From a virus (Duplodnaviria > Heunggongvirae > Uroviricota > Caudoviricetes): a DNA stretch of 4,471 bases. The stretch lies in IMG/VR virus record IMGVR_UViG_2703718812_000015. One strand, 5' to 3'. Below the pieces are notes generated by a model. That model ran no database searches. It was not told the origin of the DNA and worked only from the letters and a program-made list of their open reading frames with translations. Each line of letters starts with the position of its first letter. The stretch's first letter is position 1. The position numbers and the translations under genes are program-made. This document shows positions 846 through 1,335 of the stretch, piece after piece.

Positions 846-1115
846 TTACATCATCATTTCGCCGTCAGGCTGAGGCTCACTGCTACCGTCAGGCTGAGAC
901 ACGACGCCATCTGAAACAGCACTGTCACCCGCGCCGTCTTCAGGCTCAGGAGCAGCCGGTCCCCCCAGCAGCTCATCCAGAATGGCATCCACTTCAGCAT
1001 CAAGACGCGCCTCAAGATTCTGGCGGAGTTGCTGTTTCAGTGCGCTTCTGACTTCTTCAGAGCGCAGGACGTCCTTCACTGCTTCAGCAGTGACCAGAGA
1101 TTTTATTTCTGACAT
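846..1115 (-). CDS. Small acidic hypothetical protein (89 aa) between nanS-p and holin
   Basis: Internal ATG at 1115-1113 of track ORF 846..1271, whose own first codon is GTG. The shorter form is preferred because the upstream extension overlaps the better-supported 60-aa ORF in another frame. Helix-like N-half (MSEIKSLVTAEAVKDVLRSEEVRSALKQQLRQNLEARLDAEVDAILDELL) then a Gly/Pro/Asp/Glu/Ser-rich tail; by my count about 20 acidic versus 7 basic residues. Shine-Dalgarno is weak (GAGAAAA), so the start is uncertain. Confidence 0.5.
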   Translation of the reverse strand: MSEIKSLVTAEAVKDVLRSEEVRSALKQQLRQNLEARLDAEVDAILDELLGGPAAPEPEDGAGDSAVSDGVVSQPDGSSEPQPDGEMMM

Positions 1116-1152
1116 GGGATTTTCTCGTTGAAAGGTGTTGTTAAGAAAGTTG

Positions 1153-1335
1153 CTACGAAATGAGAGGCTCTTCGGGTTTTGTTCCGGCTGACTGGCTGGC
1201 GCTGATTTTTTCCGCCGCCGCGGCATCAATCTTTTTGCGTATATAGTTCCGGATAACCTTATACCCGCCACTTACCAGATATAACGTGCACACCACCGTG
1301 CAGAAATACAATAAAATAAGCTGTACAAATCTCAT
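1153..1335 (-). CDS. Small membrane peptide (60 aa), hypothetical
   Basis: ATG at 1335-1333 with GGGAGGG Shine-Dalgarno about 4 nt upstream; stop TAG at 1155-1153. N-terminal hydrophobic stretch (FVQLILLYFCTVVCTLYLV) followed by a basic segment (RNYIRKK) and a polar tail, consistent with a single-pass membrane peptide. Confidence 0.55.
   Translation of the reverse strand: MRFVQLILLYFCTVVCTLYLVSGGYKVIRNYIRKKIDAAAAEKISASQSAGTKPEEPLIS

Follow-up and report, generated by a model that had tools for sequence, protein, structure and literature searches.

We analysed a stretch of DNA of 4471 nucleotides (nt) from a tailed-phage record (IMG/VR IMGVR_UViG_2703718812_000015; the whole stretch is called the window in the following), in which two small genes are located between nanS-p, encoding a sialate O-acetylesterase, and S, encoding a class II holin. 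The first encodes a 60-amino-acid membrane peptide of the DUF1378 family (1153..1335) and the second an 89-amino-acid, strongly acidic protein of the DUF826 family (846..1115); like all genes in the window, both lie on the minus strand. As judged from their sequence variation, both open reading frames (ORFs) are genuine coding genes under purifying selection, and they are co-transcribed as late-operon genes, dependent on the antiterminator Q, between nanS-p and S. The two families are small and confined to prophages of the Enterobacterales, and the way in which they recur side by side argues that they are functionally linked. We tentatively read the pair as a non-essential accessory regulator of lysis by pinholin and signal-anchor-release (SAR) endolysin, a role that we consider possible. 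Both genes were already known as named Pfam families and are annotated in RefSeq, and both domains have been placed between nanS-p and S before, as proteins of unknown function (PMC10462455); new here are the comparative picture of their contexts, a settled start codon for the acidic protein and a testable hypothesis of a two-piece regulator.

The two genes and their products

The DUF1378 protein matched Pfam PF07125 over its full length (1-59 of 59; E 5.8e-40, 135.7 bits with respect to a cut-off of 25) as well as phrog_494, and is identical to RefSeq entry WP_001213059.1 (DUF1378 family protein). The DUF826 protein matched Pfam PF05696 (1-73 of 75; E 1.2e-34, 118.8 bits, same cut-off), with the match beginning at the methionine encoded at 1115, as well as phrog_311, and is identical to RefSeq entry WP_001289716.1 (DUF826 domain-containing protein). 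PHROGs 494 and 311 both carry the label 'unknown function', and NCBIfam holds no family for either protein.

Selection was analysed on 40 distinct DNA versions of the gene pair, taken from 83 loci. The pooled ratio of nonsynonymous to synonymous substitution rates (dN/dS) was 0.23 for the DUF1378 gene (0.19 for the transmembrane part) and 0.33 for the DUF826 gene (0.15 over residues 1-51, as opposed to 0.53 over the tail), and the synonymous sites of the DUF1378 gene were saturated, with a dS above 1.3 versus the copies in phages carrying Shiga toxin 2 (Stx2). The variable sites were concentrated at third codon positions, as in the N-terminal domain of DUF826 in the lambdoid copies (6/4/25 over the three positions). 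Expression data are available for the orthologues in Escherichia coli Sakai. In ribosome profiling (Ribo-seq) of cells grown in lysogeny broth (LB), the DUF1378 orthologue ECs1210 of prophage Sp5 had a transcriptome value of 40.8 reads per kilobase per million (RPKM), a translatome value of 22.5 and a coverage of 0.85, and the adjoining holin gene ECs1212 had 14.4, 7.9 and 0.40, respectively, values that may pool reads from several near-identical prophage copies (PMC5597208, table S2). The DUF826 orthologue ECs1211 was found as a growth-phase regulated RNA in a microarray study (PMC2241611). A search around the pair recovered no promoter resembling the sigma-70 type. The earlier note on this DNA, made from its letters only, had described a conserved-looking pair between nanS-p and the holin gene, and this holds: the frames are preserved and the order is kept in related prophages, and neither a loss of the frames nor an absence of translation was encountered, given the dN/dS values and the ribosome footprints on ECs1210.

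The two ORFs are separated by exactly 37 nt (1116..1152), a spacer that is predicted to be unstructured (minimum free energy -1.4 kcal/mol) and that contains a weak Shine-Dalgarno sequence for DUF826 (GAG, 1124-1126, about 8 nt upstream of ATG 1115). The DUF826 frame is also open further upstream, to GTG 1271, which gives an alternative ORF of 141 amino acids, and the earlier note had therefore called the start ambiguous; the longer frame is indeed open, but the ambiguity can be resolved. On the comparative evidence the start is ATG 1115, because: i) the Pfam and PHROG profiles both begin at its methionine; ii) the DUF826 homologue in a Mu-like phage (37% identical) has just 27 open codons upstream, no start codon among them, and an AAGGAG Shine-Dalgarno sequence before the canonical ATG; and iii) in the stretch that the 141-amino-acid ORF overlaps, the variation peaks at the third positions of DUF1378, which are the second positions of the extension frame. 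The upstream extension (1116..1271) is thus not coding. Its possible start varies among the lambdoid copies (38 to 58 codons), and long forms of DUF826 are annotated in some older records (VT2-Sakai orf43; phrog_8301).

The DUF1378 gene starts with ATG, preceded at 3 nt by the strong Shine-Dalgarno sequence GGGAGGG (1339..1345). The peptide has a single hydrophobic stretch (residues ~3-24; Kyte-Doolittle 19-mer maximum 2.28), in agreement with the single-pass membrane peptide of the earlier note, followed by a basic cluster (K26, R29, R33, K34 and K35, i.e. five Lys/Arg in residues 26-35), and the net charge of its tail is +3 in the window copy and +2 to +3 across the variants. With only two residues preceding the helix and the basic cluster behind it, the positive-inside rule makes DUF1378 probably a bitopic inner-membrane peptide, oriented N-out/C-in with a cytoplasmic tail. 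The motif LLYF..VV..LYLV.GGYK.IR.Y was preserved in alignments from E. coli to Klebsiella and Erwinia at an identity of ~60%, with L9, Y10, V15, L18, L20, G23, G24 and Y25 invariant over that range. The transmembrane helix is conserved far beyond the needs of an anchor, and this unusual conservation suggests a specific contact inside the membrane rather than plain anchoring. In length, N-terminal transmembrane helix and GGY-basic junction the window protein is the same as the other members of Pfam DUF1378/PHROG 494, of which it is a member without any difference.

The DUF826 protein contains 3 Lys, 4 Arg, 9 Asp and 11 Glu, so that the net charge of -13 that had been counted before is exact (-4 in residues 1-52 and -9 in the tail, which includes six Pro); among all variants the net charge ranges from -8 to -15. 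It has no signal peptide. AlphaFold2, run on an alignment of 18 sequences, gave a short helix (10-17), a long helix (20-49) with a pLDDT (predicted local distance difference test) above 90 and a hydrophobic residue at every fourth position, and a tail (57-80) with a pLDDT below 50, which corresponds to the helical N-half and disordered acidic tail anticipated from the letters. The protein is thus modelled as a long, very acidic amphipathic helix with a disordered, acidic and Pro-rich tail. The model recovered nothing below E 0.87 in a Foldseek search versus BFVD and a profile search of the PDB nothing below E 0.67, a result to be expected when the fold is one long helix. Every tail of the long form is acidic, with a conserved hydrophobic C-terminus, which in the window copy reads MMM (846-872) and elsewhere MML, TML or TLL, mostly after a Pro and an acidic residue and despite the variability of the tail; this C-terminus looks like a docking or degradation motif. 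The window protein is a member of Pfam DUF826/PHROG 311, in which only one subfamily has the long acidic tail; short-form members (56-61 amino acids) are without it. In genes of the short form (L101 5950-6000; L139 5941-6000; P0240, P0243, P0264, P0265) an in-frame ATG upstream adds a Trp-containing segment of 17-20 amino acids (MKITHWLKSL, MWLDWLFS, MRLHSWISSV), which looks conserved at the protein level and suggests a different N-terminus in this subfamily.

Distribution and genomic contexts of the two families

Both families have a narrow distribution. Word-index homology searches yielded, among the named matches listed, Escherichia and Shigella proteins only; a full HMMER scan with a DUF826 profile gave just 54 matches among 1.84 billion representative proteins, which marks a very small family; and a profile search with diverse DUF1378 members gave 322 matches, of which the best 120 were all from Escherichia or Shigella as far as the source was named. 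Cluster look-ups extended the range to Salmonella, Citrobacter and Pantoea for divergent DUF826 members, and to Klebsiella (over 1000 contigs), Raoultella, Erwinia tracheiphila and Citrobacter for DUF1378. A scan of one genome per species with an alignment of close DUF826 members returned no confirmed locus, and a second one with divergent members returned Pantoea only. Within a collection of 50,697 phage records we counted 307 with DUF826, 309 with DUF1378, 351 with NanS-p and 436 with a P21-type holin. The pair was present in 1064 of the 5426 complete E. coli genomes, with 3 places in the median genome and 10 at most. A plasmid match (H270) was rejected, being only a pseudogene fragment flanked by insertion sequences (IS).

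Five arrangements were found. The first is that of the lambdoid prophages of E. coli strains that produce Shiga toxin (STEC), in which the order nanS-p, DUF1378, DUF826, S occurred in every one of the 80 IMG/VR loci with readable flanks, and likewise in the Stx2 phages Min27 and VT2-Sakai. Downstream of S these loci vary, with YdfR present or absent and with two types of endolysin. The sequences are mosaic: the DNA similarity of the window to Stx phages (~85%) spans the holin gene through DUF826 and ends within the DUF1378 tail (~1219), the N-terminal part of DUF1378 forms a separate block together with nanS-p, and DUF826 at 88-97% is paired with DUF1378 at 63-76%. There are counter-examples: 21 Stx1a phages and phage 2B8 carry another class of nanS-p (55% identity) with S directly after it and no pair. 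In the two loci of this kind, with nanS-p and S and no pair, that were read (L088 5299, L089 4970; n=2, too few for a conclusion) the holin frame starts with MEKITTG and spans 68 amino acids, without the MYQ extension that gives the dual-start motif; the motif was seen in the 77 loci with the pair (cf. position 770 of the window).

The second, Klebsiella-type arrangement (more than 30 loci) consists of a P21-family pinholin, a SAR endolysin and Rz with embedded Rz1, followed by DUF1378 as the last gene, the ATG of which overlaps the Rz stop codon (ATGA); a tailspike gene comes next, and nanS-p and DUF826 are missing. It includes a GenBank record named Stenotrophomonas phage vB_SmeS_BUCT709 (L085, OM816835.1, 2721-4153), in which the pinholin gene is unannotated and an ORF on the opposite strand is annotated instead. 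The DUF1378 protein of this record is identical to one on over 1000 Klebsiella pneumoniae contigs, and its stated host therefore looks doubtful. The third arrangement was seen in ~45 loci, of the Salmonella, Citrobacter or Pantoea type: here DUF826 is a short gene (Pfam E 1.8e-18) that stands ~230 nt after Rz/Rz1 and is not accompanied by DUF1378; the locus that was read in detail (L101) has a class II holin of the HP1 family, a SAR-type endolysin and terminase genes directly after.

The other two arrangements are found in Mu/P2-like and Mu-like elements. In Mu/P2-like elements of Erwinia or Citrobacter type the pair is reversed, with the tail fibre and tail-fibre assembly genes followed by DUF826 and then DUF1378, or DUF1378 stands alone in some of them; next come an acetyltransferase or acyltransferase gene on the opposite strand and a Dam methylase gene. 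A Mu-like phage that is frequent in E. coli carries, in this order, gin, the gene for a NanS-p-like esterase (71% identical), DUF1378 (67%), DUF826 (37%), com and a methylase gene; here the pair is 24 kb away from a complete Mu-type lysis cassette, including a homologue of the gp25 releasin. In three arrangements that are otherwise unrelated the DUF1378 neighbour handles sugar O-acetyl groups, being the NanS-p esterase (window 1483-3456), a hexapeptide acetyltransferase (L139 6468-7052) or an Acyl_transf_3 O-acetylase (L145 5203-6366), which may be coincidence.

Taken over these contexts, both families are co-oriented with the late genes throughout; in three of the five arrangements they border on a lysis cassette and in the other two they lie in cargo regions far from lysis genes; and the holins, where identified, are of class II, from the P21 family in the first two arrangements and from the HP1 family in L101. 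All R-like endolysins (over 60% identical) with a readable start have a basic N-terminus followed by a SAR-like helix, LSAAxLALIAAGA. That two very rare families should adjoin in three unrelated arrangements, and in either order, argues for a link that goes beyond chance. Neither gene is an obligatory companion of the other, of nanS-p or of the P21 holin; an obligatory tie of the pair to nanS-p or to this holin was rejected on the pair-less loci of Stx1a type and on the contexts without nanS-p.

Possible roles of the pair

Our favoured, tentative reading of the pair, an accessory regulator of pinholin/SAR-endolysin lysis, would work as follows. DUF1378 would engage the membrane-embedded helices of the SAR endolysin or the pinholin through its conserved transmembrane segment, and either the basic tail of DUF1378 or the basic ends that the pinholin or SAR endolysin has in the cytoplasm would recruit the acidic DUF826 helix. 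This recruitment would alter the ease with which the SAR or pinholin helix leaves the bilayer, and thereby shift the timing of lysis and hence that of the release of Shiga toxin and NanS-p. The charges of the two proteins are complementary in every variant. A natural fusion of a DUF1378 tail with DUF826 (P0233), modelled in AlphaFold2 without an alignment to look for a contact between helices of the same chain, gave a low mean pLDDT of 51.

In two pieces, the pair would resemble the releasin gp25 of phage Mu and Lcc6 of Shewanella phage LambdaSo. Mu gp25 is a tethered (N-out/C-in), anionic cytoplasmic protein that is needed to release the SAR endolysin, and its action depends on basic residues that this endolysin has at its cytoplasmic N-terminus (PMC9239132). 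It shares with DUF1378 a single N-terminal transmembrane helix with hardly any periplasmic residues, the N-out/C-in orientation (predicted for DUF1378) and basic residues at the membrane-cytoplasm junction; its anionic helical cytoplasmic part and its position as a late gene near a SAR endolysin have their likeness in the pair as well. It differs in that the anionic part would here be a separate polypeptide, DUF826, whereas the own tail of DUF1378 is basic, and in that the window genes lie upstream of the holin gene instead of downstream of the endolysin gene, a gp25-like position being found only in the Klebsiella-type cassette. There is no sequence similarity, and neither protein matched DUF2730, the family of gp25, at E up to 0.1. 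One Mu-like phage carries both a gp25 homologue and the DUF1378/DUF826 pair, and with the element having its own gp25 homologue the possibility that DUF1378 replaces the releasin in Mu-like phages was rejected.

Lcc6 has 65 amino acids with a transmembrane helix (5-22) and a cytoplasmic tail of 43 amino acids, and is strictly required for pinholin lysis, and its gene is located far from the lysis cassette (bioRxiv 10.1101/2024.01.23.576932). Going by this description alone, its architecture is nearly that of DUF1378, it works with a pinholin/SAR-endolysin system and its gene may stand away from the lysis cassette. It differs in being essential for lysis, while DUF1378 is missing from many phages with a P21 holin, and in that no acidic partner has been described for it. 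The antiholins and co-antiholins (S21-71, T4 RI/RIII, P1 LydB) are small, holin-binding proteins that are encoded in or beside lysis cassettes and set lysis timing, and T4 RIII is a small cytoplasmic helical protein; they share no sequence similarity with DUF1378 or DUF826, and the window holin already has a dual-start motif of its own.

Several points weigh against the regulator of lysis. The link of both families to lysis is drawn from context and analogy; Mu-like phages carry the genes after gin or after the tail-fibre assembly gene, in the former case 24 kb from the cassette that contains the gp25 homologue; the pair is missing in ~130 of the 436 phage records with a P21-type holin and in at least 21 Stx1a phages in which nanS-p and S are both present, so that it is dispensable; and in some groups each gene is found without the other. 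Slots beside lambdoid lysis cassettes are, moreover, classic insertion points of cargo such as stx and nanS-p. Finally, in uninduced Sakai both RNA and footprints of ECs1210 were ~3-fold above those of the downstream holin gene, an excess that multi-copy mapping may inflate and that is unexpected for a simple member of a lysis operon. The suggestion of the earlier note that the membrane peptide may regulate lysis timing does fit the repeated siting beside pinholin/SAR-endolysin cassettes in three phage groups. The bolder form of the hypothesis, in which a membrane peptide and a detachable acidic helix constitute an unrecognised two-piece regulator that would time the exit of the SAR helix, lysis and the release of Stx and NanS-p in most Stx phages, is more doubtful than the general one.

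It is about as probable that the two genes are accessory cargo (morons) unrelated to lysis, serving for instance superinfection exclusion at the inner membrane or a benefit at the level of the host or the population, and merely occupy the module boundaries where temperate phages gather such cargo. They indeed lie at a module boundary everywhere (Q to S, Rz to terminase, Rz to tailspike, tail-fibre assembly to cargo, and gin to com/mom), amid neighbours of the lysogenic-conversion type (stx, nanS-p, Acyl_transf_3 O-acetylase, hexapeptide acetyltransferase and Dam methylase). Their dispensability for many phages with the same holin, their copies at as many as 10 sites in one E. coli genome, among them defective prophages like the window element, and the uninduced level of ECs1210 above that of the adjacent holin gene, together with the shift of ECs1211 RNA with growth phase, point in the same direction. 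Small inner-membrane exclusion proteins encoded beside tail genes, e.g. HK97 gp15, provide a precedent. This explanation is less easily reconciled with the lack of a promoter-like site around the pair, with its constant co-orientation with the late genes and with the Klebsiella group, in which the ATGA shared with Rz implies translation as part of the lysis operon. With regard to exclusion or defence, no match to a PADLOC defence model was found, and the only two DUF1378 residues that would be exposed to the periplasm offer little surface for blocking an incoming phage.

We consider it unlikely that the pair assists the NanS-p esterase functionally, e.g. in where it is localised, how it is released or how it is regulated, with the three genes as one module. 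Such a role would account for the contiguity of the trio in every lambdoid locus with readable flanks, for the presence of the pair in ~307 of the 351 phage records with nanS-p and for the recurrence of the trio in the Mu-like phage without an adjacent holin gene. However, one class of nanS-p (the one with 55% identity, which also has a different C-terminal domain) directly precedes S without the pair, each of the two genes occurs without nanS-p in prophages of Klebsiella, Salmonella, Citrobacter, Pantoea and Erwinia, and a mosaic breakpoint separates nanS-p from the DUF826 side, the similarity to Stx phages beginning inside DUF1378.

T7 gp5.9 and lambda Gam are examples of mimics that are small, acidic and helical, and the earlier note had considered a function of the acidic protein in anti-restriction or host takeover. 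If DUF826 inhibited a host enzyme by mimicking a nucleic acid or a protein (anti-restriction, anti-RecBCD and the like), the membrane peptide being unrelated to it, this would agree with the negative charge of all variants and with the helical core, disordered acidic tail and conserved hydrophobic C-terminus. We nevertheless regard this as very unlikely. Anti-restriction proteins must act early, and the genes are in late operons in all contexts, without a promoter-like site of their own, which disfavours such a function; furthermore, DUF826 is repeatedly adjacent to DUF1378 in both orders, its short-form members are without the long acidic tail, and no match in sequence or fold to a known mimic was obtained from PADLOC (nothing with E below 0.01 for either protein or the distant homologues tested), the PDB or BFVD. 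That the ORFs are chance open frames, or that the acidic protein is the 141-amino-acid form starting at GTG 1271, has a negligible probability: the longer frame is open and such forms are annotated, phrog_8301 included, but the Pfam E-values (1e-34 to 6e-40), the purifying selection with third-position variation in the annotated frames, and an extension that is absent from the divergent homologue and variable in its start among the lambdoid copies all speak for the two genes as described.

The surrounding prophage and significance of the pair

The complete window was 100% identical to a chromosomal stretch in several Shiga-toxin-producing E. coli (e.g. NZ_CP027388). The source element is a degraded (defective) lambdoid, Stx-phage-like prophage at the ydfJ (Qin-like) site, with the gene order: antiterminator Q, a TerB-family pseudogene, DUF3927, nanS-p, DUF1378, DUF826, the class II holin gene and YdfR/DUF1327; in the source genome an IS3 element follows YdfR and the endolysin gene is missing. 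The TerB-family gene (3800-4296) has an internal stop, is a pseudogene in RefSeq and overlaps by 4 nt the start of the DUF3927 membrane ORF of 45 amino acids, both being located between Q and nanS-p. The nanS-p gene (1483..3456, minus strand) encodes DUF1737, SASA and DUF6645 domains according to domain matches and RefSeq annotation, and contains a perfect 36-nt tandem duplication (3228-3299) that results in a repeated unit of 12 amino acids, TTPVVVPGTGDV, between the DUF1737 and esterase domains. Right after its stop codon there is a hairpin (1430..1469, minus strand) with an 8-bp G+C stem and a z-score of -2.5.

On the other side of the pair, a G+C-rich hairpin directly follows the DUF826 stop codon (809..837, minus strand) and precedes a U-rich run; it is terminator-like, with a z-score over an 80-nt stretch (-0.86) that is not significant. 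A second predicted hairpin (773-808), also not significant in comparison with shuffled sequences, is situated directly upstream of the holin start, in overlap with the ribosome-binding region of the holin gene, and is reminiscent of the lambda structure that determines the proportion of the two S products. The holin itself (555..770, minus strand; Pfam PF04971, E 3.6e-33) is a class II, P21-type pinholin of 71 amino acids with the dual-start motif MYQM. The YdfR/DUF1327 gene downstream of it (2..550, minus strand; family match and annotation), called incomplete by RefSeq in the source genome, contains a perfect direct repeat of 61 nt (27-87 and 285-345, 258 nt apart), by which the peptide segment AGLCEGDGPLPENRPVILEA... 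is duplicated.

The significance of the pair lies in its position and its abundance. Stx phages release Shiga toxin via phage lysis, so that any shift in the timing of lysis changes the toxin output, and the pair is located directly upstream of the holin gene in ~300 sequenced Stx-type phages and occurs in about a fifth of the complete E. coli genomes, often in multiple copies. If the pair does modulate lysis, it would be the third example in the recently discovered class of small accessory lysis factors, after the Mu releasin and Lcc6 of LambdaSo, and one that acts in medically important phages; if it is cargo unrelated to lysis instead, it would still rank among the most frequent gene pairs in prophages of E. 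coli that await characterisation.

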